Shown: positions 5,266 to 40,879, counted from the first letter of the stretch. The stretch is DNA of 64,000 nt from Bacillota bacterium (GCA_050951805.1 JBMNJT010000002.1:288001-352000), one strand, 5' to 3'. Numbers and translations: made by a program. Notes: generated by a model from the sequence alone, not told the origin.

Positions 5266-5532
5266 TACTCCACCTCCTGCCAGATAAGTATTATGCGCCA
5301 ATTGAAGGAATGCTTGCGCCCAGCTGACGGCTATCCCAATGGCGCTGGCATATTCATGCTTGGTATTCATCACTTGCGGGCAAACTCCTTCTAGTCGAGT
5401 CGTCGGGCTGAGTCCGTTCGGACGCGCACTGGCCCGGCGGCAGGAACAGCTGCTCGGAAAAGCGAACTATACTCGGACTGCTGCTGTATTTTTCCCAATG
5501 GCGGCAGCCATGATTTAGGGAGGATTAATGGA

Positions 5533-6906: not shown

Positions 6907-7244
6907 GCAGGTTATGAGGGAGCATTCGGCGCCATCAGTCGTCTGATATCGGAACTTCGGCCCACGTGAATTTGGGTGTGGCGCAAAGAAAAGTCAATAC
7001 ATGAGTAGTCGTGACAGGTTCTTGCGCGATCCTAAGCCTGCAGTTCGGATCTTGGCTGTCTACTGAAGGCCGTGATTCCTTTTGCATCTTGCTTGGCAGC
7101 CTAGATGCTTCTCGAAGCTTGCTCAGTTAGTATTGTTGCGGGCAGTCGCGGCACGTGGATATAGGGCTAGGAAAACGGGGCTGCAATCTGCATGTGACGG
7201 GGCGCACATCTTAGAGCGCTTTGTGAAAGGAGGCGGGAACGGTC

Positions 7245-7736
7245 ATGAGCAATAGAACACTGGCAGGAATTGCGTTGGTCATCCTGGGAACGCTTCTTCT
7301 CATGTCGAATTTTGGGATAAGGGCGCGATTTCCGGCAGCCAGCTTCTGGCCGCTCCTCTTAGCTTTGGTTGGAGCGATGTTCATCAGGGACGCTCTCAGA
7401 CCAGGCGGCGAAAGGAGCCATGTCTTTGTCGGAGTCATAATACTCGGCATCGGGATCATGTATTTTCTGAAAGCAATAGGGTTGATCAGGATTGGCATGG
7501 GGAAGCTCTGGCCGGTCTACCTGGTAATAGTGGGAATTGCGTTCTTTGCACAGGCGGCTGCGATGAATGTGCCGCATTATTCGGGGACAGGTGCTCTTTT
7601 GTGCGGAGTAGGCATCATTCTCCTCGCTTTCAACTTACGCCTGGTGGACTACGGGATATTCCGCGAGGCGGTGAAATACTGGCCTGTTCTGATAATAGCC
7701 GCGGGAGTTCTCAAACTTGTCGACAGCTACAGATGA
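7245..7736 (+). CDS. Membrane protein with LiaI/LiaF-like (DUF5668-type) transmembrane modules
   Basis: Repeated hydrophobic hairpins, each ending in a WP(L/V) motif; AAAGGAGG RBS. Confidence 0.7.
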   Translation: MSNRTLAGIALVILGTLLLMSNFGIRARFPAASFWPLLLALVGAMFIRDALRPGGERSHVFVGVIILGIGIMYFLKAIGLIRIGMGKLWPVYLVIVGIAFFAQAAAMNVPHYSGTGALLCGVGIILLAFNLRLVDYGIFREAVKYWPVLIIAAGVLKLVDSYR

Positions 7737-8596
7737 TGATATGAGCGGAAGTCTCACAGTGCGCATGTTGATGGCCTGAGACGGAAACGAAATGAATTGC
7801 GCCGACGAGTATGGGCGCAGAGTGTCGTTATAGATCCTAATCCACGCGGGGCGGGGCTTGCATGATCTCTTGTCAGAGATCGGCAGGCCTTGTTTTCATT
7901 ATCCAAGTGTAGCTTTTGACATGACGCCGGTTCTTTTGAGCGAGTATCGATAGGCTTTTCTGCCATTATCCAGTCTGCATTGCTCGTAGCTGGGGCTCTT
8001 GCGGCTCGATTGGGCCAAGATGCTTTTTGCGAGTTGCCCTCAGAGCACAGGGCTTAAGTATATTGTATTGGCAACTGTCGGCTTTATGCGAAATGCATAA
8101 TCTCGAACGACTGCGGTCCAGTAAAGGGTTGAGCGAACCTTGCGATGTCGCAATTTACACGTGGAATAGCATACCGCAGGCCCTCCAGCATGCTTCAGCC
8201 GGAATGTGCTCTTCTTTTGTTGTCATTTCTATGCAGCTTCCTGTACGGATCTACATGGTTCGCGCGATCGGCGTGCTACGATGATCTATGGGAATGCCCG
8301 CCACGGTGGTACACACGACTTTTCTCTGCGAGCCGATGCCGGGTTTGCCATGGTCTGGGTAGGACCCGAAGCGGTCAGTCGCAGGCATTGGAAAAGACCT
8401 TCCAGAGAAGCTATAATGGCGCGCTCCGATCGCCTGTGGAGCCAGCGGCCAAGGACGGCTGAACGGGCGGGATTTGCAACAGATTGTAATGGCCTGCCAG
8501 TTGCCCATTAGAGGATCGTCAATATCAGCGTGCCCAATCGACGGGTCTGCATACGAGGTGGTTCCAGTCGATAGACGGGGCCAGGAGGGTTGATAT

Positions 8597-11500
8597 ATGG
8601 TTGAAGTCCATATTGAGCCATATACGAGGGTTACGGGCGCCGGGTCTGGCGGCAGGGGGCAGACGCGAGCAGGGGGAACGTCCGGGCGGCGTGGGAGGGA
8701 TGCTTCAGAGGCTGGGCCAACTCCTAACCGTGGAAAGCGCAAACCCCGAGGGCCGAATCGACAGACTTCTTCCGCTTTGCCGCAGGGCGCAGATGCTTCG
8801 AAAAGGCCAGGCACGCGCCGACAACCTGCGAAAGAGCGAGCCCGACAGGGAAAATCGTTTCATCAGGGGTTGCCGAAATGGGGGTCCTCATGGAACAGCC
8901 GGGCTGCAAAAGGAGAATTGCGTGATGTGCGAAAACGTGGAATTCAAGATGAGATCGCGGGTGGGCAGTATTCTCCGGGCAGGCTGTGGGGGGGCGTGGC
9001 CATTGGTTTTGTGTGCGGGTCTGCTACCCTGTTTGGTGCCTATGCCCCGTTTGGCATTGTTTGTGTGACCGCAGCGCTTTTTGGATGGGATGTTGCATAT
9101 GCGATGCCCACAATTGCGGGCGCCCTAGCCGGAGCGGCCCTTGGGGCGGGCCCGCAGGCCGCGGTCGGCCTCGCCATATCCGCTGCGTTGCTAGAGGTTC
9201 TCCGGAAGCTCATCTGGCCTCAGCTGTCGCCTGGTTTCCGCCATTCCACAGGTAGCTGGGCCGTGGGCGCGATCGTCCTCTTGTGTTCGTTCATTGGATC
9301 GGCGATAGCCTACGAGGTAAGCGGATCAGGCGTCGACGTGTTAGTCGTCAGCCTTGTCGAGTCCGCCTTGGCCGGGTCGGCAGCGGCCATCGTGGTTCCT
9401 TCGGCAATCGCCTGTGCCGAGACGGGCCAGCTCAAATCGGCGGGCCGACTTGAGTCGGCTGCGCTTCTTGTTGTGGGGGCCGCGGTCTGCGCAGGCCTTG
9501 ATTCATGGTCTTTTGGCGGGTTTTCCCCCGGCGCAGCCGTTGGCCTCTATGCGTCGGCGGTTGTAGGTGCGATAGCGGGCCCGGGCGCAGGTGCGATCGT
9601 GGGAGCATCTTTGGGCGTCGGACTCGGCATCGCCAGAGCCGGACAGGGTATCCTCATTGGCATTTTGACATTGGCCGGGGCCGCCTCGGGCATAGTTGGC
9701 AGGCAGGGACGGGCAGTCACGGCGTTTTCTATATTGATCGCAGCCGCGCTCTCAGGTTACCAGCTTCGAACGACAGGCGAGTTCACAGCCAGAATGGTTG
9801 AAGCGTCAGTTGCTGCGATCGGGTTTCTTCTTACCCCTGATCGGCTTCTTTCAGAGCTTTCGTGGCGCCTTCCTGGCGGTATTGCCCCGTACGATCTTGA
9901 AAGGGAGCGGATGGACGGTGTCTATCACGTGGTTATGGGGAAGCTTTCCGTTTTGGGGCAGACCTTTCGTGAACTTGCAATAGCATATCAAGGCGGGCCT
10001 ATCGGGGATTTTCGCGACACAGATGGCGGTGAAAGGAAGGATGGAAGCGACGCCGATGGGCATGACGGGGCTGGTTCTGCTGCCGATATCGATCTTGCGG
10101 GCGGTTTGGGGCCCGCAGAGATCTGGTCATCTGACGTTCAGGAACTGGATGATCCGTTCGAAGCCGCGAGCTGCGAGAGCCCCGGGATGCGCGCAGTACG
10201 TGCGGCAGCCTTCATTCGGACACAGGCATGTACCGGTTGCCCAAGATACGATGTGTGTTGGCGCGACATGTTCTTCCGAACTTACCGGGACATTGTGGAC
10301 ATGCTTGCAGCTGTGGAGTTATTCGGGGATGGTGGCATTGAATCGCTTCCGGAAGGGCTCAAAAATAGATGCATGCGGACGGAAAAAGTGATTGGAGCCT
10401 CCTTGGTTGCTGCGGGAAGAAGAAGGAGCGCTGCCGTATGGCAGGGACAAAAGGAGCGAAATGGGCAGCAGAAGACGGAAGCGCTTCTCGACAGGTCATC
10501 GACTGTGAGCATCTTGGCATTACAGATGGCCGGTGTGGCCGACGCGATCTCGCGCGTATCTTGTCAAGCGCAGGGGATGGCCAGGTTTGACGAGGAAGCT
10601 GAAAGGTTGATCCGAAGGCGGCTGTCGGCCATGGGCATTGGCGTTGTGGATGTCAGGGTATCCTGGACCGGTCATGGGGGTTTGGAGGTGTACGTGGTCA
10701 AGGCTCCGTGCGCGCAGGACGGAGAGTGCGTCAAAACAGTGGCGCCTGCAGTCGGCGATGCGTTGGGCCGGCCGCTCTCCGTTTGGCAGGCGGATTGCTT
10801 TTGGACTGAAGGAGAAGGTTCGATGACGCTTGGGCCTGAAGGCAAGAGCCGTGTTGGAGCGGCGACAGGGTTGGAAAGCGTTCGTAGGGACCGGCGAGGA
10901 GAGCGCAAGGAGTGCTGTATCAGGCTGTTGCCTGCCCGAAAGTATGATCTTGAGAGCGAAGCTGTAACATTGCCCAGAACTTCGGGCGAGACAAGCGGCG
11001 ATTCCCACGCAGTGATCAACTTGGGAGATGGAAGGATGGCAGCCATAATAGCGGATGGCATGGGGGTTGGGGAAGAGGCTTCAGCAGAGAGCGGCGCAGC
11101 CGTGGCTATGCTGGCGAGGCTCTTGGCAGCCGGCCTTGATTTGGATTTTGCGGTCCAAAGTGTAAATGCGATGATGTTGCTCAGGTCGGAGGATGACACG
11201 TTCACCACTGTTGACCTTGCCGTGGTGGACCTTTACACCGGGCAGGCAGAGATGGTCAAAGCGGGCGCCCCGCCTAGCTTCATAAAACGCGGACACGAGG
11301 TGATAGCCGTAGGAGGCCCCTCTGTGCCGGTTGGGGTTTTGGCGCCCACGAGGGTCATGAGGTACAGGACGAATCTTGAGGAAGGGGACATGCTCATAAT
11401 GGTCACCGACGGGGTGACCGAGGCAAGGCCAGGCCCGTCCGAATCAGGTGTCGAGCTTGTCCGTGTGATGGAGCGCGCAGATTGGGATTTGCCAAGGAAG

Positions 11501-21607: not shown

Positions 21608-22447
21608 TCAACGCACTCTGGCATAGTCCAGCTCCTCGAGGGCTTGATCTACAGTGAGTGGGACGGAAACGTCCCACCCTCTTTTTTTCAGGGATTCGAA
21701 GAGATCTGCCAGGACAGGGGGCTCGATCCCTGCATCCCTTAGCGCGTCGGTCTGGGCAAAAACCTCTTCTGGCGTGCCGGAAAGGGCCATCTTGCCTTGC
21801 CCTGCCAGCACATATACCCAGTCTGCTATTGCTGGAACGTAGTCGATCTCGTGGGTGGAGACGATGTATGTTATTCCGCTTTCCGCATGAAGCTGGGCGA
21901 GGAGCGAGGCCAGCTCTGTGCGGGAACGCGGATCAAGCCCAGTGAAAGGCTCGTCCATTATGAGAAGCTTAGGCTCGGTGATTAGCGCTCCGGCCAGGGC
22001 AACCTTCCTTTTTTCGCCTCCGCTCAGGTAGTGTGGCACTTTCCTCCTCAGATGCCATATCCCCAGCCTGTTGAGGATAGCCTTGCCCTTGGCCTCTATC
22101 TCATCTCGCGGCCACCCCAGTGCCCGCGGGGTAAACGTTACATCATCCCATACTGTAGGTCCGATGATTTGGTCGTCGACGTTTTGCAGAACTACGCCCA
22201 CTCGGTTGCGCATCTCCTTGAACTGCTTTGACGGGCTGAGCCCGAAGACGCTGACTTTGCCGTCGACTGGCGCAAGCAAGCCGAGGAGGTGGAATATGAG
22301 GGTTGACTTGCCGCTCCCGTTTGCCCCGAGAACTGCGACTCTCTGGCCCCTGCGGACGGAAAAGTCGAGTCCGCACAGGTCCACCTCTGTTTGGTCGGGA
22401 TAGACGTGTCTTAAGCACTTTATCTCGGCAATAATCTTATCGCTCAT
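21608..22447 (-). CDS. cbiO: ECF transporter ATPase (CbiO/NikO type)
   Basis: GANGSGKS Walker A, LQNVDDQI (ECF Q-helix), LSGGEK signature, DEPFTGLDP and STH. Confidence 0.88.
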   Translation of the reverse strand: MSDKIIAEIKCLRHVYPDQTEVDLCGLDFSVRRGQRVAVLGANGSGKSTLIFHLLGLLAPVDGKVSVFGLSPSKQFKEMRNRVGVVLQNVDDQIIGPTVWDDVTFTPRALGWPRDEIEAKGKAILNRLGIWHLRRKVPHYLSGGEKRKVALAGALITEPKLLIMDEPFTGLDPRSRTELASLLAQLHAESGITYIVSTHEIDYVPAIADWVYVLAGQGKMALSGTPEEVFAQTDALRDAGIEPPVLADLFESLKKRGWDVSVPLTVDQALEELDYARVR

Positions 22448-23148
22448 CTGTAAAGGAACACCCCCACTAGAGTAAGTGCGGAATATGCGAGCAAGGCAAA
22501 GTCCATCGCATTGGGAGGCCGATGCTCGCTTGTGGCGGAAATGCGCTGTGAATAGCCTCTAACCTGCATTACTCGGTACATTCGCTCAGTCATGTCGGCT
22601 GAATGGATCACTAGAACTCCAAGCATTTGGCCGTATGTACGAAGCTGCTGTGGAAGGGTTCCGCTGACCCCGCCCCGCAGTCGAACGGCGACCATGAGTC
22701 CTTGCAGTTCATCTACGAGGATGAAGAAAGCCCGGTAGCCCATGAATAACGCATCTGCCACGAGGCTCGGCAGGACATGGGAAATAATGGAGAAGACATC
22801 CACAAACGATGTGGTGGTGATGAGAGTCGCGGCTGTCAACCCCGCTGTGAAAGCCTTAGTCACTATGGTAATGGCGTACAACGGATTCGACCATACTGAT
22901 CCTATGGCGAAAAGTGCGGCAAAGACTACCGGGTAAATAGCAATGCGCGCCGTGTACCAGAGCGGCTGCTTTGTAGCGCATGCTAGCAGAACGACCGCCC
23001 CTGCCACGAGGCCTGCCATGGCGGGCGATGATGACGCTATTGTTGATGTGAGGAGTAAGGCCGATGCAAGAACCTTCGCCCACGGCAGGGCTGCGTGCAA
23101 AGGAGTGCGACCATTCGCTGCCAGCTCGTCGATGAATCGGATATCCAA
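22444..23148 (-). CDS. cbiQ: ECF transporter T component (CbiQ/NikQ type)
   Basis: PLH...PWAK N-terminus, TM helices, YRAF, and the AVRLRG and MQVRGY Arg motifs. Confidence 0.85.
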   Translation of the reverse strand: MDIRFIDELAANGRTPLHAALPWAKVLASALLLTSTIASSSPAMAGLVAGAVVLLACATKQPLWYTARIAIYPVVFAALFAIGSVWSNPLYAITIVTKAFTAGLTAATLITTTSFVDVFSIISHVLPSLVADALFMGYRAFFILVDELQGLMVAVRLRGGVSGTLPQQLRTYGQMLGVLVIHSADMTERMYRVMQVRGYSQRISATSEHRPPNAMDFALLAYSALTLVGVFLYR

Positions 23149-23150
23149 GT

Positions 23151-23957
23151 CTAGGCCTCCCCTGTGTGTCTGGGTTCTTCTTCGTCATCGTCGTCCCCGG
23201 GTACTGGGAGGGTGTCCATGCCGATAAGGTCTGGACGGGACTCCGAGATGAACTGGACGACAGACCCTGTAATCACTGCTTCTATGGCCCAGCCTACTAT
23301 CCCGGCTGTGTAGACGATTGTGGCAAATGTCTTGAAAGAGGCAAGACGGGTATCGCTATCTGGGCCATGCTCGTGGGAATCGTGATCTGGAAGGAGATGG
23401 TCGGCTTCATCGAATGGCTCCTCTTCTTCATGGACTGTATGGGTGTGATGGTGGTGCATCACAAGCGACGGATTGATCTCGGTGCCGGCAACTATTCCTA
23501 GCATGGCTGTGGTGGACACGGCCAAGACGATAATGGTGATGATGGCGGTTTTCACAAATGGACGGCCTTTTCGGGAACCAAACAGGCTCCATAGGAGCCA
23601 GCCGAGGGTGATCTCCAGGCCCGTTATTAGAGTATTGAGTCCGATTACTGTGATTCCGCCATGGGCACCCAATGCCAAAATCAAGTTTGTGATAAATCCT
23701 GCTATGAATCCCTCAGCGGGCCCTGCCATCATGCCAGTCAGCACCGTGAAGTTAACATGGTAGTGGAGAACTGGTATGGGAAGGCTCATCGCCAGCAACA
23801 TGACGGCGGAGAGTATCGCGATCCGGGGAACGGTGCGTGCCCGGTCTTGGCGCCTTATGGAGGACACGGCGAAAAGAAGCAGGATTGCTGTTGCCCCAAA
23901 CCCGGCCAATATCCATGGCAGTGGAAGAACCCCATCTGGAATATGTAGATGTGACAT
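23151..23957 (-). CDS. ECF S component, CbiM/NikM family, with an atypical N-terminus and a His-rich loop
   Basis: HIPDG motif, LHYHVN, AHGGITVIGLN, EAVITG...RPDL; insertion HHHHTHTVHEEEE...HDSHEH. Confidence 0.85.
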   Translation of the reverse strand: MSHLHIPDGVLPLPWILAGFGATAILLLFAVSSIRRQDRARTVPRIAILSAVMLLAMSLPIPVLHYHVNFTVLTGMMAGPAEGFIAGFITNLILALGAHGGITVIGLNTLITGLEITLGWLLWSLFGSRKGRPFVKTAIITIIVLAVSTTAMLGIVAGTEINPSLVMHHHHTHTVHEEEEPFDEADHLLPDHDSHEHGPDSDTRLASFKTFATIVYTAGIVGWAIEAVITGSVVQFISESRPDLIGMDTLPVPGDDDDEEEPRHTGEA

Positions 23958-23960
23958 CTT

Positions 23961-24536
23961 TTACTCCTCCTTGTTTGTGCCGGGTGTGGAAGCTGGAGCC
24001 GCCAGCCGGCAGGTGGCGCATTGTCCGGTCAATTTGAGCCAATGGCTGTCTATGGTGAAGCCGGTGGCTTGTTCGAGCTTGCGCGCTAACGACGAAATCT
24101 CACAGTCGCCGAACTCAACCACTCTGCCGCATCCGGTGCATATGAGGTGATGATGGTGCCCGGCGTTGCCAAGGTTCCGTTCATATCGGTCGGCGCCATC
24201 ATTGAAGTTGATCTTGCTCAGAACTCCCACATCCTTAAGAAGCTCGAGGGTGCGGTAGACTGTGACAAGGCTTATATCCGGTTGAGACCGCGTTACCGAC
24301 TCGAACACTTGTTGTGCCGTCAGATGTCCGGGGCCGTGCTCAAAGAGAAGAAGGATCAGCCTTCGTTGTTCGGTCAGCTTGCATCCGGAGTTTCGGAGTA
24401 TGCAGATGGCATTTTCATACCAGTTTTGGGCCACTGGGGTTGCAGAAAACTCTATAGGACTTTGCACAGCGGCTGCTGCCGCAGCTCCGGATGGAGCAGG
24501 TTTGACGGGTTCATCTGACCCATTCTGCGGTGCCAT
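23961..24536 (-). CDS. Fur-family metalloregulator (Zur/Nur-like)
   Basis: KLTEQR, HLTA, SLVTVYRTL, HHHHLICTGC and C-terminal GQCATC. Start set at ATG 24536 (GTG 24554 is possible). Confidence 0.9.
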   Translation of the reverse strand: MAPQNGSDEPVKPAPSGAAAAAAVQSPIEFSATPVAQNWYENAICILRNSGCKLTEQRRLILLLFEHGPGHLTAQQVFESVTRSQPDISLVTVYRTLELLKDVGVLSKINFNDGADRYERNLGNAGHHHHLICTGCGRVVEFGDCEISSLARKLEQATGFTIDSHWLKLTGQCATCRLAAPASTPGTNKEE

Positions 24537-24560
24537 CTCATCACATCCACACAAGAATCT

Positions 24561-24596
24561 AAATGAAAGTCATTTGCAATTATCTCTCACATTATA
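24561..24596 (-). promoter_or_regulatory. Fur/Zur-box-like operator and -10 element of the fur-ECF operon
   Basis: AAATGAAAGTCATTTGCAATT (24561-24581), an imperfect 7-1-7 inverted repeat, lies just downstream of a minus-strand TATAAT (24591-24596). Confidence 0.65.
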
Positions 24597-26193: not shown

Positions 26194-27588
26194 ATGGGCA
26201 AGATGGGGGCGGGCTTTCGCCCTAGGACTGAACCATCGGACTTGTTGATCATACACGCAGCTGAACTCGGAACATGTAGGGCACGGGCTGCTTGGGACAA
26301 TGGCCGGCCGGAGCCCGGGCCTAGATTAGGCGCAGATCTTGGCTGCGCAGGAATTATAGAGGATGGAGCGATTGCTGTAAGAGACGGCGTGATTGTGGAC
26401 ATCGGTGCCACTGAAGAGGTGCTGTCGCGTGAACCGGAATGGCTAGCCCGAAGACCAAATGGAGCCGGGCAGGTGGCGGACTTTCCGGAGGCTATCCGTT
26501 CAGTGACCGAGGTTTTCGATGCAAGCGGCAGGACGGTGGTTCCTGGATTTGTGGATGCGCATACCCATCTTGTTTATGCCGGGAGTCGCTACAGGGAACA
26601 CCTGATGCGTCTTGAAGGGGCCGAGTACTTGGACATCCTTAAGGCTGGCGGCGGGATCCTTGCGACTTTGGAGGCGACTCGGAGAGCGTCCTTTGACGAA
26701 CTGCTTGAGCTTGCTTTGAAGCGGCTTGATGTAATGCTGCTCCACGGGACTACGACGGTCGAGGCAAAAAGCGGTTACGGCCTCGATCTCGACACAGAAC
26801 TGAAGCAACTGAGGGTTGCCCGTGCCGCTTGCGACGATCATCCGATAGAGATAGTCAGCACATTCATGGGGGCTCACGCCGTTCCCCCTGAGTTCACAGG
26901 CGACCCAGACGGTTACATCGATTTCATGATCGCCGAGGTCCTTCCGCAAGTTGCCGAGGGAGGGTTGGCAGAGTTCTGTGATGTCTTCTGCGAGGAAGGG
27001 GTTTTCTCAGTAGAACAGTCGAGGCGGGTGCTAATGGCAGGCCTTGCCCATGGACTCTGTCCCAAAATGCATGCTGACGAGATATACCCCATAGGCGGAG
27101 CAGAGCTTGCGGGAGAGCTTGGGGCGGCATCAGCTGACCACCTTGCCGCTGCGTCCAAAGCTGGCATGGAAAGCCTGGCTCATGCAGGGGTGGTGGCGGT
27201 GTTGTTGCCGGGCACAATGTTCACGTTGATGTCCGAGAGATACGCTAACGCCAGGGAAATGATAAACCTGGGAGTTCCTGTTGCGCTCGCCACTGACTAC
27301 AATCCCGGGACATCGCCTGTAATGTCAATGCAGTTTGTGATGACCCTTGCCTGTCTCAAGATGGGCATGACTCCCCAGGAAGCGCTATGCGCCGCCACGG
27401 CCAATGCAGCCTACGCAGTGGGAAGGGGAGGAGACGCAGGCGTCCTCCGGGTAGGGGCAGCCGCCGACTTCATAGTCTGTGATGTTCCTGCCGTAGATGC
27501 CTTGCCGTTTTCGGTTGGAGTCAACCCCGTTACTGATGTGTTCGTAGGGGGCGTGCGTGTCGTATCCGACCGTGTGCTTTCCTATTGA
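26194..27588 (+). CDS. hutI: Imidazolonepropionase
   Basis: PGFVDAHTH, GGGI, EAKSGYG, GAHA, DVFCE, HADE, ADHL and ATDYNPG. Start ATG 26194 after AAGGAGG. Confidence 0.96.
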   Translation: MGKMGAGFRPRTEPSDLLIIHAAELGTCRARAAWDNGRPEPGPRLGADLGCAGIIEDGAIAVRDGVIVDIGATEEVLSREPEWLARRPNGAGQVADFPEAIRSVTEVFDASGRTVVPGFVDAHTHLVYAGSRYREHLMRLEGAEYLDILKAGGGILATLEATRRASFDELLELALKRLDVMLLHGTTTVEAKSGYGLDLDTELKQLRVARAACDDHPIEIVSTFMGAHAVPPEFTGDPDGYIDFMIAEVLPQVAEGGLAEFCDVFCEEGVFSVEQSRRVLMAGLAHGLCPKMHADEIYPIGGAELAGELGAASADHLAAASKAGMESLAHAGVVAVLLPGTMFTLMSERYANAREMINLGVPVALATDYNPGTSPVMSMQFVMTLACLKMGMTPQEALCAATANAAYAVGRGGDAGVLRVGAAADFIVCDVPAVDALPFSVGVNPVTDVFVGGVRVVSDRVLSY

Positions 27589-27608
27589 CTTTTCTAGGAG
27601 GATGCTTT

Positions 27609-28244
27609 ATGCCATTTGGTGAGATGACTGTCCAAAGCTTTCTTGATGAACTCGCTTCGAATAGTCCTGCTCCCGGCGGAGGAAGCGCTGCCGCGGTGGC
27701 TGGGGCTATGGGCGCCGGTTTGGTGTCGATGGTTGCAGGCCTTACCGAAACCGCAGAAATGTCGGAGGAGGATGCTGAAAAGGTCAGACAGGCTGGTGCC
27801 AGAGCTCAAAAGCTTCGGACAGAGCTTTTGAGGTGCGCTGATGAAGATACTAGAGCGTTCAACGAGGTAATGGCGGCGTACAGGATGCCGCGGGGGACTG
27901 ACGAGGAAAAGCAAACTAGGCGTGAAGCGATTCAGCAGGGACTCAAGGGCGCCGTCGCTGTCCCGATGAGAACTTTGGAACTGGCAATGGAGGGTTTGGG
28001 GCTGGCAACTTACATGGCGTTTGAGGGAAACAAGAACGCTGTGAGCGATGCAGGAGTTTCGGCCCAGCTTTTCAATGCAGCTGTCCGTGGCGCCATCTTC
28101 AATGTAGAGATCAACCTATCGGGCATCAAGGATGCGGATTTTGTCTCTGAGGCCCGAGCCAAAGTCGCCTCGTACGACCTCGAACGGGAAAGATTGAGGA
28201 AAGAGTCTTTAGACGCTGTTTTAGGCAGACTTGGGGGGAACTGA
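27609..28244 (+). CDS. Formiminotetrahydrofolate cyclodeaminase/cyclohydrolase family protein
   Basis: FLDELASNSPAPGGGS, EDTRAF, GNKNAVSD and NVEINL; lies in the hut cluster. Confidence 0.92.
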   Translation: MPFGEMTVQSFLDELASNSPAPGGGSAAAVAGAMGAGLVSMVAGLTETAEMSEEDAEKVRQAGARAQKLRTELLRCADEDTRAFNEVMAAYRMPRGTDEEKQTRREAIQQGLKGAVAVPMRTLELAMEGLGLATYMAFEGNKNAVSDAGVSAQLFNAAVRGAIFNVEINLSGIKDADFVSEARAKVASYDLERERLRKESLDAVLGRLGGN

Positions 28245-28458
28245 AAACCACTCAAGGACGTCGATGTAGAGAGGGGCTGTGGCTAGGCGAGGATCGGCCT
28301 TGCCTGAATGGATAAGTTTTACAGGCTAAAGCCGAAGCGTGGGGCGGGAGCAAGTTGGCAAGGCATATGGATCAGCCTGTGATTAGTTTGGCATGGTGGC
28401 GCTTGCCTTGTAGCTTGGATCGGGCGAGCACATTTATGACTATGGAGGACTGCAGCTG

Positions 28459-29766
28459 ATGAACACAGACATGGACAACGTAGATAACGAGCAGAATTGT
28501 GGATCGGATTGGCCTGTCCGGTGCGGGACCGGGTGCAATCATGATGTGCGGGTGGCTGTGCTGCCCTGTAAGGAAGATGTGGAAGCGGAGCTTCTTAAGA
28601 TGGGTGCAAGCCCGGCCGGCATCGAGATCATGGCCGAAAAAGGCGTTTTTCGGACGGTGATATTGCGTAACGTGCCGATCAAGGCTGCTCTGATAATCAA
28701 GCAAGAAATGTTGGCTAAGGGCGGCGAAGCTGCACTCCCGCATTCCGCCATAGGTTTGTGTGCCGACTCATGCGATATTCTTTTGATGGGCACATTGAGG
28801 CAGTATGAGCGCGTTATTCATACCCTAGCTCTGCAGCCGTTTGGGCTTTTAGGCATTGCACGGGAGATCCAGTGCGCGTTGGCGAGCTATGATGGGAGGC
28901 CAGAATCTATCTGCATCGGAGGAAGGACATTCCTTTACGGAGAAAGAACATACATAATGGGCATCCTTAACGTCACTCCCGACTCTTTCTCTGATGGCGG
29001 AGCGTACACTACAGCCGATTCCGCATTCGAACATGCTATGGAGATGCTTGAGGCCGGCGCCGACATAATCGACATCGGCGGAGAGTCGACCAAGCCGGGC
29101 GTAGATCCCCTGCCCCTGGACGAGGAACTTGAAAGGGTGCTTCCTATCGTAAAGAGGCTTGCATCCCAAACAGATGCAGTTATTTCGATTGATACATACA
29201 AGGCCGAAGTGGCAGAGCGCTGCCTAGACCTCGGCGCGCACATCATCAACGACGTGTCCGCTCTCCGAGGAGAGGGTGACATGGCGTCGGTAGTCTCGCG
29301 TTATAATGCCCCTGTAGTGCTGATGCACTCAAAGGGGCGTCCCACACATATGCAGGCAGATCCCACGTATGAGTGCGTGGTCCGCGAAGTATACAGTTTC
29401 CTTGCCGAGCGGATGGAGTACGCGTGTGAACGTGGCGTTTCGCCCTGTAACATAATTCTAGATCCCGGAATAGGCTTTGGTAAGACCCCGCAGCATAATC
29501 TCGAGTTAATGCGACGTCTGGCGGAATTTAAGAGTCTGGGCAGACCCATTTTGGTGGGCACATCCAGAAAGTCCACCATAGGAAAGGTGTTGCACAAGCC
29601 TGTGTCAGATAGGGTTTGGGGCACGGCTGCCACAGTCGCCACGGCCATTATGTCCGGAGCGGATATTGTGAGAGTCCATGATGTGAGGGAGATGGCTATG
29701 GTTGCGCAGATGACTGACGCAATATGCAGGGGATGGCGCGGAGAGGAGGACGGCCATGAGAGCTGA
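28459..29766 (+). CDS. folP: Dihydropteroate synthase with an N-terminal extra domain
   Basis: MGILNVTPDSFSDGG, IDIGGEST, SIDTYK, DPGIGFGK, GTSRKS and RVHDV; N-terminal domain with KQEMLAKGGEAA and QPFGL. Confidence 0.95.
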   Translation: MNTDMDNVDNEQNCGSDWPVRCGTGCNHDVRVAVLPCKEDVEAELLKMGASPAGIEIMAEKGVFRTVILRNVPIKAALIIKQEMLAKGGEAALPHSAIGLCADSCDILLMGTLRQYERVIHTLALQPFGLLGIAREIQCALASYDGRPESICIGGRTFLYGERTYIMGILNVTPDSFSDGGAYTTADSAFEHAMEMLEAGADIIDIGGESTKPGVDPLPLDEELERVLPIVKRLASQTDAVISIDTYKAEVAERCLDLGAHIINDVSALRGEGDMASVVSRYNAPVVLMHSKGRPTHMQADPTYECVVREVYSFLAERMEYACERGVSPCNIILDPGIGFGKTPQHNLELMRRLAEFKSLGRPILVGTSRKSTIGKVLHKPVSDRVWGTAATVATAIMSGADIVRVHDVREMAMVAQMTDAICRGWRGEEDGHES

Positions 29767-30172
29767 TAGGATTACCCTGAAGAACCTGGTGTTCTATGCT
29801 TACCATGGTGTTTTCGCGGCAGAGAAGGAGCTGGGACAGAAATTCGAGGTAGACGTGGATATGAGAGGGGATTTCCAGGCAGCTGCTCGTGTTGACGACA
29901 TTGACATGGCTGTGAACTATGCGGACGTGTACGCTACAGTGAAAGACCTCGTGGAGGAACGGGATTTCGACCTCATCGAGGCGCTTGCCCTGAACATCGC
30001 AGATGAGGTGTTGTCAGGCTATGAGGTTGAAGAGGTAACAGTAAGAGTACGCAAGCCGAGTGCCCCGATAGGCGGCCCAGCCGACTATGTGGAGTGTGAA
30101 ATCACCAGATCTAGGTCAGACATGGCGCCGCTCGGAGAGGAAGATGATGGCCTGGATGATCCCGCACTTTAG
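29756..30172 (+). CDS. folB: Dihydroneopterin aldolase
   Basis: AYHGV..AEK.LGQ.F, VNYADV, LIEALA and KPSAPI. Confidence 0.95.
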   Translation: MRADRITLKNLVFYAYHGVFAAEKELGQKFEVDVDMRGDFQAAARVDDIDMAVNYADVYATVKDLVEERDFDLIEALALNIADEVLSGYEVEEVTVRVRKPSAPIGGPADYVECEITRSRSDMAPLGEEDDGLDDPAL

Positions 30173-31867: not shown

Positions 31868-32581
31868 CTACTCGTCCGCGTTCTCTGGCATACAACCGAG
31901 ACATGGTCCCTTAGGCGGCATTGGGGGCGGCTCAGGGAATTCCGGCACCGGTGGAATTGGTCCCGGACCCGGTGTCGACGGGACATGTGGTTGTGGAGGA
32001 GTGTAGTACGGCGGACACGGCATTCCCGGAGTCTCGGGTGGAGGCGCTATTGGTCCGGGCATTGTAGGTGTTCCCGGAATAGGTATTTGGGGCCAAGGCA
32101 TCGGGCTAGGCATTGGCATACCCGGACATGGCATGGTCGGCATCCCATACCAAGGGTGTGCAGGCATGCCAGGGCACGGAATAGGACTGGGCATTGGCGC
32201 CCCGGGGCATGGCATTGTAGGCCATCCTGGCGTTGGCATGCCAGGGTACGGAATTTCCGGTGAGGGCATTATCGGCTCCGGGGCCGGCGCGGGCCATGGC
32301 TCCGCCACAGGCGGACACGGTATCCAAGGTCCGGGCTCGGGCACAACCGGAGCAGGCATGCGAACCCCTGGACAAGATATGTTCTCAGGGGGACGTATCA
32401 ACGAGAGCACTGAATCGAAGAAGAAAGCGTGCCGCAACTCATCTCTGCTTATTTGAAGTACCCCGCGGCGAATTGCTTCGGTTGGAGCGATTTGTGCCAT
32501 CCTTGTATAGCGATCTACGGTTTCAACTTCATCGTTGTACGCTTCCTGCACCATGTTAAAAAACTCTCTGGAAGGCAGCAC
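31868..32581 (-). CDS. Ferritin/rubrerythrin-like half domain fused to a Pro/Met/Cys-rich repeat tail (spore-coat-like)
   Basis: DEVETVDRY...DELRH helix pair, then repeated PGMP / TMPCPG / PMPSP units; GAGGTGA RBS before GTG. Confidence 0.75.
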   Translation of the reverse strand: MLPSREFFNMVQEAYNDEVETVDRYTRMAQIAPTEAIRRGVLQISRDELRHAFFFDSVLSLIRPPENISCPGVRMPAPVVPEPGPWIPCPPVAEPWPAPAPEPIMPSPEIPYPGMPTPGWPTMPCPGAPMPSPIPCPGMPAHPWYGMPTMPCPGMPMPSPMPWPQIPIPGTPTMPGPIAPPPETPGMPCPPYYTPPQPHVPSTPGPGPIPPVPEFPEPPPMPPKGPCLGCMPENADE

Positions 32582-32835
32582 GTGATATCACCTCAATCAT
32601 CTCAGTCAGGTTCGATTTTGGATCGTCCAGTCGTCCAGTGGCAGTATATTGCTGATGAGTGCAGCTAGTTCCGGTGCCTTATGCACTATGTGAAATGGCA
32701 GCAGGCCATAATGCCCACATGCCGGGCTGATTTGGGGAAGAGGCTCTTGCAGAGGATCTGTTGACTCTTTGTAATGACGAATGTAGCATGGTGGCGAAAA
32801 CGCCTGTGAACTGAGACCAGATGGGGGTGATAGAT

Positions 32836-35655
32836 GTGAAGGCAAATGGCGGCAGAACGGATCGAATGGATATAATACTGCACGGCAAGGTGGAGAGCGT
32901 GGGCTCGGATACGGGGTTGGGGCCGGAGAGGCGCGGAAAGAAAAAAGGGCAACCCGGGCGGGGGGATGTAGGGGGCACGCCTGATAAGAAGGTAAGAGGC
33001 CTGCGCCAGGTAGACTTCGCCATAACGGGGATGACGTGTGCCGCATGTGCCGCTCGAGTCGAGCGTGCGCTGGCAAATGAGGCCGGGGTGGCACATGCCG
33101 CCGTTAATCTGGCGGCCGAGACTGCAAGGGTGCAGTATGATCCTGATCAGACGAGCCCGGATCGGCTCGTTAAGGCGATAGAGGCTGCGGGATATGGTGC
33201 GAGGGAGGCAGCACGCGATGCTGAAGAGGATGCTAGGCGCACAGAGGAAAGAAAGCAACAGGAGATCAACAACTGGCGACTGTTCTACATAGGCGCTGCA
33301 TTCAGCATTCCGTTGGTTGTGGGGATGATAGCCGACATTTTCGGGATAGAGGCGTTGATGTTTCTCATCGACCCCTTCGTGGGCTTCGTCTTGGCCACGC
33401 CAGTGGTGTTCGTGCCTGGATCCCGCTTCTATATCAGCGCCGCGAGGACAGTTGCCCATGGCGGAGCCAACATGGACGTTCTTGTAGCCTTAGGCACGGG
33501 CGCTGCTTACATCCTCAGCGTGGTCCACACCTTCATCGTTTCAGGCCCCGTCTATTACGAGGCCGCTGCAGTAGTCATCACCTTGGTGCTGCTCGGAAAG
33601 AACCTGGAGCATGTGGCGAAGGGCAAGACGAGCGAGGCCATACGGAAACTCGCCGCTTTGTCTCCTAAGACCGCCTCGGTGCTGCAGGCTGACGGGACCG
33701 AAATTCAGGTTCCCGTGGATGAAGTGGAAGTCGGCGACATCCTGATAGTCAGGCCGGGTGAACGCGTGCCCGTAGACGGCGTGATAATCGAAGGCTTTTC
33801 TGCTATAGACGAGTCGATGCTCACAGGCGAGAGCATCCCCGTGGACAGGCAGGCGGGCGACGCCATAACAGGAGGCACCGTCAACGGCCACGGGATGCTC
33901 AAGATGCGGGCGACCCGGGTGGGCTCGGAGACTGCGCTTGCTCAGATTATCCGCATGGTGGAAGAAGCGCAGGGAAGTAAGGCGCCCATACAGCGTTTGG
34001 CGGATGTGGTGTCATACTATTTCGTCCCCGCGGTTCTGGTTGTGGCTGTGGTTACGTTTGCAGGATGGATGGCTGCAGGAATAGGCGCGTCTCAGGCATT
34101 GGTGAACGCCACGGCTGTGCTGGTCATCGCGTGTCCTTGTGCGCTCGGGCTCGCGACCCCGACGGCTATCATGGTAGCCACTGGGCGTGGCGCCGAGCTG
34201 GGTATCTTGATACGTGGGGGAGAGCATCTGGAAAGGCTTAGCTCAGTGAAGGCAGTAGTCCTCGACAAGACTGGGACGATTACAGCGGGCGTGCCGTCGC
34301 TTGAAGAAGTCGAAGTCTTTGCACCTCACGGGCGTGAAGAGGCGCTTCGACTCGCCGCTTCTGCTGAACGGGCTTCAGAGCATCCGCTCGGCAGGGCGAT
34401 AGTAGAAGCGGCTGAGCAGGCAGGGATAGATATTCCGATGCCCGACGAGTTTAGGACGGTTCCGGGGCGCGGCATCGTCGCAACTGTGGAAGGAAGACAG
34501 GTTGCCGTCGGAACGCTTCGATTTTTAGATGAACTTGGCGTATCCGTGGACCGTGAAGGGCTTGCAGCCGAGCGCAGGTTCGGGAGCGGGCTGGTGGCGG
34601 GGACGGCTGAGGAGACGAATGGGGCTGGTTCAGAAGTCCCGGTTACGAGTTTGATTGCCGCAGGCGCTGTGGGGGCCTCTGTTGCCAGAATGCAAGATGA
34701 GGGGCGGACCGCCGTAGTTCAGGCGGTGGACGGAGCGGTCGCTGCGGTCTATGGAATCGCCGATCAAGTACGGCCGGGTTCGGTGGAGGCCATCAAGGGG
34801 ATTCAGGACCTCGGCATAGACGTATATATGATTACCGGTGACAACGCGCGCACAGCGGCAGCTATCGCCGAACGTGTTGGAATACCCAAACCCAACGTCC
34901 TGGCTGAGGTTCTTCCTGAGGACAAGGCGCGCGAGGTTGAACGGCTGCAGGAGGCTGGGCTTGCCGTTGCCATGGTGGGTGATGGGATAAATGATGCCCC
35001 TGCCCTTGCCACTGCGGATGTAGGGGTTGCCATGAGTACAGGGACTGATGTTGCCATGGAAGCTGCGGATATTACCATTGTGGGTAATTTGGGCAAGCTC
35101 CTCGATGCCATTAAGCTGGCCAAGAAGACTATTACCATAATTAAGGAGAATCTTTTCTGGGCCTTTGTCTACAATACCATTGGGATCCCTCTTGCGGCTT
35201 TCGGAGTTCTTCCGCCAGTGTATGCCGGGGCTGCGATGTCGTTGAGCTCGGTATCGGTAGTTTCGAATTCATTGCGATTGAGAGGGTTCGGAAAAGAGAG
35301 GCCTCGAGGGATCTCCAGGACAGAGGTGAAAGGGGTAGATAATATGCCCTATGGCAGGAAGAGCACGTCAGATAGCAAGGAGAACATGGTGGCCGGACCG
35401 GGATCCACGGAGAAATCCGCTGCCGCTGCCGGAATGGTAGGCGATTACAGTGAGGCTCTGCTCAACGTGGCTGGAATGAGTTGCGGGCATTGCAAAGCCG
35501 CTGTGGAGGGTGCTCTTATGGGTGTAGTAGGAGTCGAGTCGGCAGAGGTTGATCTTGAGGCTAAGTCCGCCAGGGTCGTATACGACAGGAACGCGGCAAA
35601 GCCTGCAGACTTGGTTCGTGCGGTGGAGGATGCCGGGTACGAGGTGCTGAGGTAG
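32836..35655 (+). CDS. copA: Cu(I)-translocating P1B-1 ATPase with N- and C-terminal HMA domains
   Basis: GMTCAAC, TGES, CPC, DKTGT, SEHP, GDGIND, YN and MxxSS; C-terminal GMSCGHC. Start uncertain (32821, 32836 or 32866). Confidence 0.93.
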   Translation: MKANGGRTDRMDIILHGKVESVGSDTGLGPERRGKKKGQPGRGDVGGTPDKKVRGLRQVDFAITGMTCAACAARVERALANEAGVAHAAVNLAAETARVQYDPDQTSPDRLVKAIEAAGYGAREAARDAEEDARRTEERKQQEINNWRLFYIGAAFSIPLVVGMIADIFGIEALMFLIDPFVGFVLATPVVFVPGSRFYISAARTVAHGGANMDVLVALGTGAAYILSVVHTFIVSGPVYYEAAAVVITLVLLGKNLEHVAKGKTSEAIRKLAALSPKTASVLQADGTEIQVPVDEVEVGDILIVRPGERVPVDGVIIEGFSAIDESMLTGESIPVDRQAGDAITGGTVNGHGMLKMRATRVGSETALAQIIRMVEEAQGSKAPIQRLADVVSYYFVPAVLVVAVVTFAGWMAAGIGASQALVNATAVLVIACPCALGLATPTAIMVATGRGAELGILIRGGEHLERLSSVKAVVLDKTGTITAGVPSLEEVEVFAPHGREEALRLAASAERASEHPLGRAIVEAAEQAGIDIPMPDEFRTVPGRGIVATVEGRQVAVGTLRFLDELGVSVDREGLAAERRFGSGLVAGTAEETNGAGSEVPVTSLIAAGAVGASVARMQDEGRTAVVQAVDGAVAAVYGIADQVRPGSVEAIKGIQDLGIDVYMITGDNARTAAAIAERVGIPKPNVLAEVLPEDKAREVERLQEAGLAVAMVGDGINDAPALATADVGVAMSTGTDVAMEAADITIVGNLGKLLDAIKLAKKTITIIKENLFWAFVYNTIGIPLAAFGVLPPVYAGAAMSLSSVSVVSNSLRLRGFGKERPRGISRTEVKGVDNMPYGRKSTSDSKENMVAGPGSTEKSAAAAGMVGDYSEALLNVAGMSCGHCKAAVEGALMGVVGVESAEVDLEAKSARVVYDRNAAKPADLVRAVEDAGYEVLR

Positions 35656-38450: not shown

Positions 38451-39211
38451 TCTCGCCTTTGTTGCTCTTCTTTCGTTATCACGAAATGCTGTGGCCCTTG
38501 AAACTCGAAAGCAACAGGTGGATTTCTTTAGTGTCTATCAAACTCCATGCGCCGCCCTGATTCGATGTTCCGAACCCAGCTGGGCCTTGCATTGTCGAGG
38601 TAGTCTAATGAGTTGACCAAGGCATCGAGCCAGCATTGCATCAGCCAAAGCCTAAACTGCACTCGAGGATCACTCAGGAAGTTGTTGAGACTTACTTAGG
38701 TGATCCTGGCCTCTGACAATGCAAACTATCCAACAACTCAGCAACCTCAATGCTCGCGGAGGCGATACGCGATCGTCTATTGCGTCATTCGACAATGACA
38801 AACACCTGCGCGCACTGGTATGGATTATGCGAGAAGAGCAGGCTGGCTTTGCCAGCCAAGGGGCCGGCATACGCGGCAACTTCAACTTGGCAACTCCAAC
38901 ACTCATGCGAAAGAAGCTAATGCCATTGTTGGGGGATGGTTTGTAACTGGCATGGAAGCGTCAAAGCGAAAGCGATGCACAATGCAAAAGGGACAACACG
39001 ACGGGGTAGGATGGAGCAGGATCTCCTGACGAAATATTGCATTTCTGAACTGTGCTTTATTCACATTCTTACTCTGGTCTTGACACTCCAACCCTGTCAT
39101 AGTCTAGCAGGTGAATGAGGGATGATGTGGAATATAAAACAAGGGTACGTCTCTTTAGCTATGCAGCGATTGAGGCGGCTCGTGCATGTATATGTTGGAG
39201 GGATAGTTGAA

Positions 39212-40879
39212 TTGAACCAAAGCAATCTCAAGGGCGAGCTGGATCGTTGGAAGAGCACGACCTACGGCAAAACCTGCGCCAGGTTCCCTGAACGACGGGA
39301 GAAGTTCGAAGGGACTTCTGGCATCGAGGTCCAGCCTGTTTACACACCGTTGGATACTGAGGGCATCGACTATCTTGAGGACCTTGGATTTCCGGGAGAA
39401 TACCCATACACGCGTGGAGTTCAACCCACGATGTATCGGGGGCGCTTGTGGACAATGCGGCAATATGCCGGCTTTGCCACGGCGGAGGAATCGAACGAAC
39501 GCTACAGGTACCTGCTGGAACAAGGGCAGACCGGGCTTTCAGTTGCGTTCGACCTCCCGACTCAGATAGGATACGATTCCGACCACGAGCTGGCATTGGG
39601 GGAAGTTGGGAAAGTTGGGGTGGCGATAGATTCTCTTGCGGATATGGAGATTCTTTTCAACGAGATACCGCTAGACAAGGTTTCCACCTCCATGACCATC
39701 AACGCGCCGGCTGCAGTCCTTTTGGCCATGTATATCGCAGTCGCGGAAAAACAGGGCGTGTCGCCGGAGAAGCTTAACGGAACTATTCAGAATGACATCC
39801 TCAAGGAATATGCCGCCCGCGGCACCTACATTTTCCCACCGAAACCGTCAATGCGCCTCATAACCAACACATTCGAGTATTGTTCTGCAAACGTTCCAAA
39901 CTGGAACACCATCAGCATAAGTGGCTACCATATCAGAGAGGCAGGGGCCACAGCAGTACAGGAACTCGCCTTCACGCTCGCTGACGGAATCGCCTATGTT
40001 CAGGCGGCTATAGACGCGGGTCTTGATGTGGACGAATTCGCTCCTAGGTTGTCGTTCTTCTTTGCAGCCCATAACGACCTTTTCGAGGAAGTTGCCAAGT
40101 TCAGAGCGGCGAGAAGGCTGTGGGCGAGGATCATGAAGGAAAGGTTCGGAGCCAAGAAGGAAAAGTCTATGAGGCTCCGGTTCCATACCCAGACGGGCGG
40201 GTCCACTCTAACGGCGCAGCAGCCTGACAACAACATTGTCAGGGTGGCATTGCAGGCGCTTGCAGCTGTTCTCGGAGGCACTCAGTCGCTGCACACCAAC
40301 TCCCGAGATGAAGCCCTAGCGCTTCCAAGCCAGGAATCGGTGATGATTGCCTTGCGCACGCAGCAGATCATCGCATACGAGAGCGGTGTCGCCGACACCA
40401 TTGATCCCCTTGCAGGCTCTTACTATGTAGAGGCTCTTACCACTCAGATTGAGGAGGCAGCCGCCGATTACATCCGCCGGATCGACGAGATGGGCGGAGC
40501 GCCTATGGCAATCGAGCGAGGGTTCATCCAGAGCGAGATAGAAGAGAGCGCTTATCGGTACCAGATGGAGATAGAGTCGGGAGACCGGATTGTTGTCGGC
40601 GTCAACGAATTCTACATAGAGGAGGAGCCGCCGAAGGGCCTTCTCAAGGTAGACCCCGCCGTTGCCGATCTGCAGTGCAAAAAACTGGCGGATGTGAAAG
40701 CTTCAAGGAATGGCGAGGCTGTGGAAAAGAGCCTTGAAGCGCTCAAGGCAGCGGCCGAAGGAACTGACAATCTCGTGCCGTATATTCTTGACGCAGTCAG
40801 AGAATACGCCACATTGGGAGAGATATGCGACACTTTGCGCGAAGTATTCGGAGAATACAAGCCCTCAGGGGCCTACTAG
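39212..40879 (+). CDS. mcmA: Methylmalonyl-CoA mutase, substrate-binding large subunit
   Basis: PYTRG, MRQYAGF (Tyr = methylmalonyl specificity), [22 protein letters not shown] and GGTQSLHTN. Start TTG 39212 after GGAGG. Confidence 0.95.

Follow-up and report, generated by a model that had tools for sequence, protein, structure and literature searches.

The question raised by this locus is which metal is brought into the cell by a small transporter of the energy-coupling factor (ECF) type that sits in the middle of a set of histidine catabolism (hut) genes. The locus lies in a stretch of 64,000 nucleotides from a Bacillota bacterium (GCA_050951805.1 JBMNJT010000002.1:288001-352000), referred to here in its whole length as the window, and consists of four tightly packed minus-strand genes at 21608-24554 that encode a Fur-family regulator, a CbiM-like S component, CbiQ and CbiO and that separate hutHU from ftcD-hutI. 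Known substrates of ECF transporters are vitamins and, of the metals, nickel and cobalt. The original prediction had seen in the operon an atypical Zur-like regulator joined to a candidate new importer of zinc or of metal-histidine complexes. Zinc proved to be the best supported substrate, through loci in which the genes share an operon with ZnuABC and through a complementary distribution of ZnuA, and on comparative grounds the operon is probably a Zur-repressed ECF-type zinc importer. We infer zinc as the ligand, the metal-binding residues and repression alike.

All four genes were found where they had been claimed, on the opposite strand within the hut cluster, from their open reading frames (ORFs) and Pfam matches. 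The S component (23151-23957, minus strand, 268 aa) passes the Pfam CbiM family PF01891 with 108.5 bits against a cut-off of 23.1; the T component, CbiQ (22444-23148, minus strand, 234 aa), matches Pfam CbiQ at 72.2 bits, and the A component, a CbiO-type ATPase encoded by a single gene (21608-22447, minus strand, 279 aa), matches ABC_tran at 100.6 bits. The CbiQ-type and CbiO-type genes overlap or adjoin within the operon of the S gene, which is the layout of group I ECF systems. None of the NCBIfam models for CbiM, CbiQ, ECF ATPases, Fur or Zur reaches its curated cut-off: the CbiM models fall far under theirs (NF004907, 66.1 vs 200 bits; TIGR00123, 22.8 vs 184), CbiQ scores 71.8 bits with TIGR02454 (cut-off 111.8), and CbiO scores highest with two cobalt/ECF ATPase models (240 and 225 bits), again under the equivalog cut-offs. 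The M and Q genes overlap (23148-23151) and there is therefore no room for an N-type partner gene between them, and a search of the whole window with Rfam gave no match at the gathering score of any family. Both results agree with the predicted lack of a cbiN, nikN or nikL partner and of a B12 riboswitch.

The S component and its clade

The S-component gene begins ATG TCA CAT CTA CAT ATT CCA GAT GGG, is preceded by AAGGAGG and has the stop codon of the regulator three bases 5' of its ATG. The encoded MSHLHIPDG (residues 1-9, 23931-23957, minus strand) is predicted from homologue starts and from an alignment with TtNikM2 to be an N-terminal metal-binding finger. That the protein starts in this way, as first proposed, was confirmed; no alternative start yields MHIPDG, and a hidden canonical start of that form is ruled out by a CTA codon at Leu4 and by the stop three bases before the ATG. 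Methionine aminopeptidase leaves Met in place before His and removes it before Ser, Thr or Gly, and the mature chain would then begin Ser-His-Leu-His following removal of Met1. Canonical NikM/CbiM proteins have a mature Met1-His2 before I-P-[DE]-G and form with it a planar four-nitrogen site that includes His67 (PMC3945884). The start M-S-H-L-H-I-P-D-G departs from this form and His67 is retained. Aligned with TtNikM2, L4-H5-IPDG stands opposite M1-H2-IPEG, His67 stands opposite His67, and His99 lies in the G-x-G-G turn where NikM2 carries Asp. The differences from the canonical proteins are thus three encoded residues before the Met1 position (two after Met removal), a second N-terminal His and a His99 that replaces the Asp of GDGG. 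The position equivalent to Thr65 of NikM2 varies. His65 is restricted to the closest relatives.

A predicted structure agrees with membership of the NikM/CbiM fold. The AlphaFold2 (AF2) model of the S component (predicted local distance difference test score 86.3, predicted template modelling score 0.83) shows an extra N-terminal helix with the IPDG loop, and a beta-hairpin between helices 2 and 3; as far as the secondary-structure string resolves the helices, this is the seven-helix NikM/CbiM fold with its added helix and inserted loop. The top Foldseek matches are TtNikM2 (4m58, 4m5b) and the Rhodobacter capsulatus RcCbiM (5x3x_M), with TM-scores of 0.70-0.80 normalised to the target at an identity of 18-22%, and by sequence a phmmer search of the Protein Data Bank gave marginal matches only (4m5b, E = 0.35). 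With TtNikM2 and the R. capsulatus CbiMQO (5x3x) the window protein shares its Pfam family, its fold, the N-terminal helix with the IPDG loop, the beta-hairpin, His67, the Glu of the last helix and dedicated CbiQ and CbiO genes in the operon. Relatives in the ESM Atlas carried generic cobalt or ECF names only.

Ahead of the last transmembrane helix lies a loop rich in His, Asp and Glu (residues 160-204, 23346-23480, minus strand), with 10 His and 13 Asp/Glu among its 45 residues. The loop had been singled out in the original prediction, and its enrichment in His extends across the clade described below: His makes up 11.6% of the loop in 231 clade members against 2.4% elsewhere, and at least three His are found there in 133 of the 231. 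The acidic C-terminal tail that had been listed beside it did not hold as a clade feature, being unconserved with a median net charge of 0. The loop is modelled by AF2 with low confidence and as non-helical. It would be expected to face outwards because the C-terminus of TtNikM2 is cytoplasmic (PMC3945884) and the last helix holds a conserved Glu.

Homologues with starts of the MSHxHIPDG kind were collected and proved to form a deep and separate clade. A start of the form x-[S/T/G]-H-x-H-[ILV]-PDG was found in 116 of the 120 best homologues, which span Bacillota, Chloroflexota, Actinomycetota, Nitrospirota, Thermodesulfobacteriota, Dadabacteria and others, and in 110 of 149 further cluster representatives. 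Some variants start M-H-I-H, giving the same mature register X-H-x-H if Met is kept there. Among the 231 of 269 sequences that passed a motif and length filter and were aligned, His67 (224), Asn69 (209), His99 (226), Glu115 (222) and Glu226 (227) are near-invariant; His3 and His5 belonged to the selection pattern, which accounts in part for their conservation. In a tree of 63 rows, 14 canonical proteins with Met-His starts and 49 clade members fell apart into two groups at 100/100, and in 41 related genomes Pfam CbiM scores were bimodal, with canonical copies at 181-218 bits and clade copies at 100-115. Two genomes of the same family, G004 and G009, hold both kinds, the canonical copy of G004 having a Met-His start and a fused NikN-like tail; the canonical copies of these two genomes gave no Rfam matches. 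In 30 of 39 clade loci the gene that follows the S-component gene is CbiQ, at a distance of no more than 27 nt in 26 of the 30, so that having no N, K or L partner is a trait of the clade.

Good evidence that residues of the finger and of the conserved set form one site comes from five sequences that switch jointly at four positions (His5 to Met, His67 to Glu, Asn69 to His, His99 to Asp) and are monophyletic at 100/99. Together with the starts and the split in the tree, this covariation upholds the idea of a distinct subclass of ECF S component with a remodelled N-terminal site. The switched sister group (proteins P0182, P0187, P0198, P0213 and P0268; loci L165, L168-L171, L214 and L217-L219) has the N-terminus M-T/N-H-I/V-M-V-PDG and is linked to a divergently transcribed Fur-family gene that lacks the hallmark Cys described below; in L169 the linked gene is instead of the ArsR family. 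The metal specificity of this small group is probably a different one.

The regulator, its operator and its regulon

The regulator ORF was listed from a TTG at 24554 (23961-24554, 197 aa). By its sequence context the in-frame ATG at 24536, which follows a weak GGA/GAG, is the likelier start, giving a protein of 191 aa (23961-24536, minus strand) that matches Pfam FUR at 117.6 bits and is classed here as of Zur type. It contains HHHH and the two CxxC pairs of the Fur family (CTGC, CATC), and has the usual Fur ligand positions in the alignment. A further Cys lies 9 residues after the first CxxC, and this hallmark Cys proved to be informative. It was found 9-10 residues past the first CxxC in all but one of the regulators directly upstream of clade genes, and in 25 of 25 full-length upstream regulators among 62 metagenome loci collected with a different query. 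It was missing from two Fur genes beside FeoAB near clade operons. Many clade-linked regulators have another Cys ahead of HHHH, which the window regulator lacks.

The company kept by such regulators was surveyed at the 30 best-matching places among 401 Bacillota genomes. All four regulators with the hallmark Cys outside ECF loci adjoin ZnuABC (L143, L158, L160, L162), and 19 without it were never beside ZnuABC and in three cases lay beside FeoB. The two complete ZnuA sequences seen, at L158 and L160, have His and not Glu as the third ligand, as does that of L156, whose regulator lay off the contig. On the regulator tree the ECF-linked and Znu-linked proteins intermix, and the group without the Cys, including the FeoB-linked proteins, is separate. 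These sequence comparisons support the proposal that the window regulator is of the Zur type, like those linked to ZnuABC, the support of the tree itself being moderate; its operator also resembles Zur boxes.

The presumed repressor site is a 23-bp imperfect palindrome TAATTGCAAATGACTTTCATTTA (24560-24582, minus strand), recognised from its conservation and uniqueness. With up to 2 mismatches allowed, AATTGMAANNNNNTTKCATTT matches the window at the segment 24561-24581 and nowhere else (0.03 matches expected by chance), and none of 100 shuffles reached the observed number of matches. The palindrome follows directly on a TATAAT hexamer (24591-24596, minus strand), the presumed -10 of the operon promoter, and its sequence, its position and its spacing to that hexamer are kept in the six closest loci (L002-L006 and L034). 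The claim of a Fur/Zur-type palindrome just past a -10 thus stood as regards the palindrome and the hexamer, with the correction that a scan with the consensus finds no acceptable -35 and calls no promoter. At the equivalent place a perfect palindrome AATTGAGAAAnTTTCTCAATT occurs in 10 of 12 loci of Thermodesulfobacteriota and Dadabacteria; the palindrome is missing from the 170 bases shown in L015 and L036.

The operators fit the actinobacterial Zur box taaTGaNAANNNTTNtCANta and the chromatin immunoprecipitation motif also quoted for it (PMC5472717), the Thermodesulfobacteriota operator fitting the 15-bp core of that box at every specified position. They also fit the site TGCAAATcATTTGCA found for Clostridium thermocellum Fur_1691 by DNA affinity purification sequencing upstream of a zinc ATP-binding cassette (ABC) transporter (PMC8457756), and share a general layout with the Zur sites listed in PMC545781. 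In the Zur-znuABC systems of C. thermocellum (PMC8457756), Streptomyces coelicolor (PMC5472717) and delta-proteobacteria (PMC545781) the repressor is likewise encoded in the uptake operon that it controls, and a palindromic box of the same layout overlaps the promoter. Unlike these, the window transporter is of the ECF type and not a binding-protein-dependent ABC importer, its regulon seems to be a single operon, and its regulator has an N-terminal extension of about 45 residues; the hallmark Cys is common to it and to the regulators linked to ZnuABC in Bacillota.

A position-weight scan of the whole genome gave 32 bits for the operon's own operator, 23 for the next site and at most 17 for others. 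The 23-bit site (G000 C8:322842) lies 2 bases before a 463-aa ORF, among small ORFs of phage-like or mobile appearance, and is probably due to chance. One perfect operator was found in each of six Thermodesulfobacteriota/Dadabacteria genomes, and weaker sites there were about as frequent as with a reversed-pattern control, an excess being seen only in G042 (10 vs 3). From these scans the regulon seems to be this one operon only.

The size of the regulon bears directly on whether the operon instead imports ferrous iron or manganese under a Fur- or Mur-type regulator. This is quite improbable, although no other Fur-family gene is present in the 97%-complete genome, the regulator matches Fur proteins best, and FeoAB, flavodoxin or flavodiiron genes lie near some homologues. 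Among solved structures the regulator scores 97.6 bits with Fur 9ire, 73.7 with MtZur 2o03, 71.3 with ScNur 3eyy and 31.9 with EcZur 4mtd, and among NCBIfam models 118.8 with Bacillus-type Fur (cut-off 220) and 45.2 with E. coli-type Zur PRK11639 (cut-off 167). These matches and the lack of a second Fur gene had at first suggested a global iron regulator, which was rejected when the genome scan found the operon's own site alone, with no second strong operator in the genome, including at its two FeoB genes; the hallmark Cys, moreover, goes with ZnuABC and not with FeoB, and the FeoB-linked regulators form their separate group on the tree. An all-nitrogen His site suits manganese or iron poorly. 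The Met/Glu/His/Asp variant, which would be better suited to harder metals, goes with a Fur-family gene lacking the Cys or with the ArsR-family gene.

The identity of the metal

A zinc importer is indicated by seven loci of Thermodesulfobacteriota and Dadabacteria in which the regulator, M, Q and O form one operon with ZnuA, ZnuC and ZnuB. Between O and ZnuA lie a small His- and Cys-containing membrane protein and an outer-membrane barrel candidate, and in ZnuA the third ligand position holds His instead of Glu and the fourth lacks Asp. These genomes hold 3-6 Fur paralogues, and the regulator of the operon is the one encoded beside a ZnuA-family gene. The small protein (L012:8389-8718, P0270) is conserved at about 110 aa between cbiO and the barrel candidate, with counterparts at offset +3 in L013, L014, L016-L018, L022 and L025; it has no Pfam match, one hydrophobic segment and several His and Cys, features by which it may be a periplasmic metal-handling protein.

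The second line of evidence is distribution. ZnuA was looked for in 41 relatives of the window genome. The 13 with the clade gave no match, whereas 20 of the 28 without it did; it was found in all 7 genomes of a sister family that lacks the clade and in none of the 12 of the window's own family. In the genome of the window itself ZnuA was not found and there is one ZIP gene.

That the operon is an ordinary nickel and/or cobalt ECF importer with a Nur-like sensor, whose longer N-terminus still gives an amino group and a His to the planar site, is unlikely. In its favour are the Pfam family of the S component, CbiM, its NikM/CbiM fold and its retained His67, and removal of Met1 would restore an X-His N-terminus. 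Nur of S. coelicolor (3eyy) is likewise a Fur-family regulator of a NikM-family ECF gene and binds the nikA and nikM promoters; its box, tTGCaa-N5-ttGCAA, has a 6-5-6 arrangement (PMC2691836) that the operators of the window, L002 and L034, three of seven close operators, fit as well as they fit a Zur box. In view of these TGC...GCA variants the operator alone can therefore not decide between zinc and nickel. Most operators of the clade read TGA...TCA, unlike that of Nur. The histidines of the Nur nickel site are His70, His72 and His126 (PMC2691836), and the hairpin segment of the window regulator, judged by eye, has no His; compared with Nur, the regulator has Cys4 motifs and its nearest typed relatives are linked to ZnuABC, in systems where ZnuA has three His. 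Canonical proteins cease to transport when one residue more is placed at the N-terminus or inserted between Met1 and His2 (PMC3945884), and the clade, split from them at 100/100, coexists with a canonical copy in G004 and G009 and lacks an N, K or L partner. Its presumed control by a Fur-family regulator stands in place of the B12 riboswitch or NikR of canonical systems; neither a B12 riboswitch nor a NikR-type signal was seen in the window, by Rfam, and NikR itself was not searched for.

The demands of the genome point the same way. None of the nickel enzyme families searched was found: there were no matches to NiFe hydrogenase, LarA or carbon monoxide dehydrogenase (CODH/Prismane), urease not being searched, and neither NiCoT nor a clear HypB/UreG was seen. 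Cobalt for the nearby B12-dependent mutase, the alternative that had been offered to zinc, is disfavoured by the absence of a match to CbiC, a marker of corrin synthesis, and by the position of the five cobalamin riboswitches of the genome, all away from the operon and before other genes. Judged from ORF starts alone, the ORFs after these riboswitches resemble B12 uptake or salvage genes and B12-independent alternatives. The five riboswitches and the missing CbiC suggest that B12 is taken up rather than made. The mutase in question, a methylmalonyl-CoA mutase, is encoded in the window with MeaB (39122-40879 and 41320-42384), and genes for two subunits of a sodium-pumping decarboxylase, beta and carboxyltransferase, follow at 44837-45967 and 46864-48414; together they form a B12-dependent module of the succinate-to-propionate type.

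LarA belongs to a nickel-pincer enzyme family. It lies directly upstream of the clade genes in L042 and L043, with a flavodiiron-type gene downstream (positions ~4600-9400). These two loci, from uncultured Eubacteriales genomes, have M-Q-O without an adjacent regulator and are the sole context that points to nickel.

The LarA context and the fit to the Nur box weigh against zinc, as do several further points. The regulator is closer by sequence to Fur than to Zur, and its tree came from a quick search with a short protein, in which the key forks had support of 86-92. The loci were collected by N-terminal peptide patterns, so the sample is biased towards the motif. Of the assessable loci, 24 of 36 from genomes and 26 of 32 from metagenomes have a Fur-family gene directly upstream, and no regulator is adjacent in the other 12 and 6. 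The ECF module of Thermodesulfobacteriota coexists with ZnuABC, and further ZnuA-family genes occur elsewhere in those genomes; replacement of ZnuABC is therefore not general. The genomes in which ZnuA was counted are related to one another, so that the number of independent lineages behind the pattern is about two (f1+f2, and G028). Flavodoxin lies upstream in L037, and FeoAB with a Fur lacking the hallmark Cys lies near the operon in L008 and L023. Responsiveness to zinc is a matter of deduction throughout, including for C. thermocellum Fur_1691 (PMC8457756). The other annotated neighbours are for the most part genes of housekeeping or of unrelated function, among them those for a DEAD helicase, a glycosylase, PsiE, a holin-like protein, Dus, PrmA and RsmE.

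A zinc importer of this kind would work as follows. With zinc sufficient the Zur-type repressor would bind the 23-bp palindrome just past the -10 and shut off its own gene and the three transporter genes; with zinc scarce the operon would be expressed. In the S component the extra N-terminal helix would place the N-terminus outside and feed it into the core of the protein, where the mature Ser-His-Leu-His, two residues longer than the canonical Met-His after removal of Met1, would contribute to a site in which four histidines (His3, His5, His67 and His99) take the place of the planar four-nitrogen nickel/cobalt site. The His/acidic loop on the outer face would collect the metal, and CbiQ with a CbiO dimer would power uptake by ATP hydrolysis, without a CbiN, NikN or NikKL helper.

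The hut cluster and the wider meaning

The flanking genes are, by Pfam, HutH, HutU, FtcD, HutI and one FTCD_C/FchA-like gene. The order hutHU, O-Q-M-regulator, ftcD-hutI is kept in the window, L002, L003, L004, L006, L034, G001, G005, G007 and G012, among which the identity of the S component drops to about 51-56%. This persistence, and the fact that HutI belongs by its Pfam families to the metal-dependent amidohydrolases, could be taken to mean that zinc-histidine or other metal-histidine complexes are imported, or that the transporter is otherwise coupled to histidine catabolism, and that it stands in the hut cluster on this account. Both had been put forward, and both are very doubtful. The linkage is limited to the window's own family and one sister family; in the other phyla sampled no hut genes lie beside the clade except a lone hutU in L007 with unrelated neighbours, and in a genome of the same family (G004, locus L138) the operon is present with no recognised hut gene upstream. 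The operator is about 560 bp from ftcD. As regards the complexes, the N-terminal loop of TtNikM2 fills the pocket in which vitamin-type S components hold their ligands (PMC3945884), and the shared fold would put the protein's own N-terminus there in the window protein as well. The linkage is read as lineage-specific inherited synteny; a physiological link through a zinc-dependent HutI or a histidine-zinc pool is speculation.

The rest of the window has some features of its own. At 27585-30172 ftcD, hutI and the cyclodeaminase/FchA-like gene are followed directly by folate genes, which include one for a FolP-type, pterin-binding protein extended at its N-terminus by about 165 residues; a short ORF overlaps the end of that gene. 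A 237-aa ORF on the minus strand (31868-32581) has no Pfam or NCBIfam match, and proline-rich repeats (P-G-M-P and similar) make up the C-terminal two thirds of its product. The plus-strand gene at 32821-35655 encodes a 944-aa copper P-type ATPase that resembles CopA; it starts with an HMA domain and carries a fused CopZ-like domain at the C-terminus (residues ~880-942).

Bacteria are usually considered to take up zinc with high affinity through systems of the ZnuABC type, through ZIP proteins or through one of a small number of specialised systems. No description of a zinc ECF transporter or of a Zur-controlled CbiM homologue was found in the literature searched, subscription journals and supplements lying largely outside it. 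If zinc is indeed the substrate, the window operon would add a new entry to the zinc importers and explain the supply of zinc in genomes without ZnuABC, such as those of the window's family. For the clade as a whole the balance tips slightly towards an unrecognised zinc-specific class of ECF transporter, present in many phyla, with a four-His site, no N, K or L helper and Zur control, that has replaced ZnuABC in some lineages. Many genes now named 'cobalt transporter' or 'ECF permease' would then need renaming. The clade would also represent a natural experiment, in which two extra residues and one Asp-to-His change turn a planar nickel/cobalt site into that of another metal, and the sister group in which His/His/Asn/His has become Met/Glu/His/Asp would mark the N-terminal finger as a tunable selectivity filter that reaches beyond nickel and cobalt.

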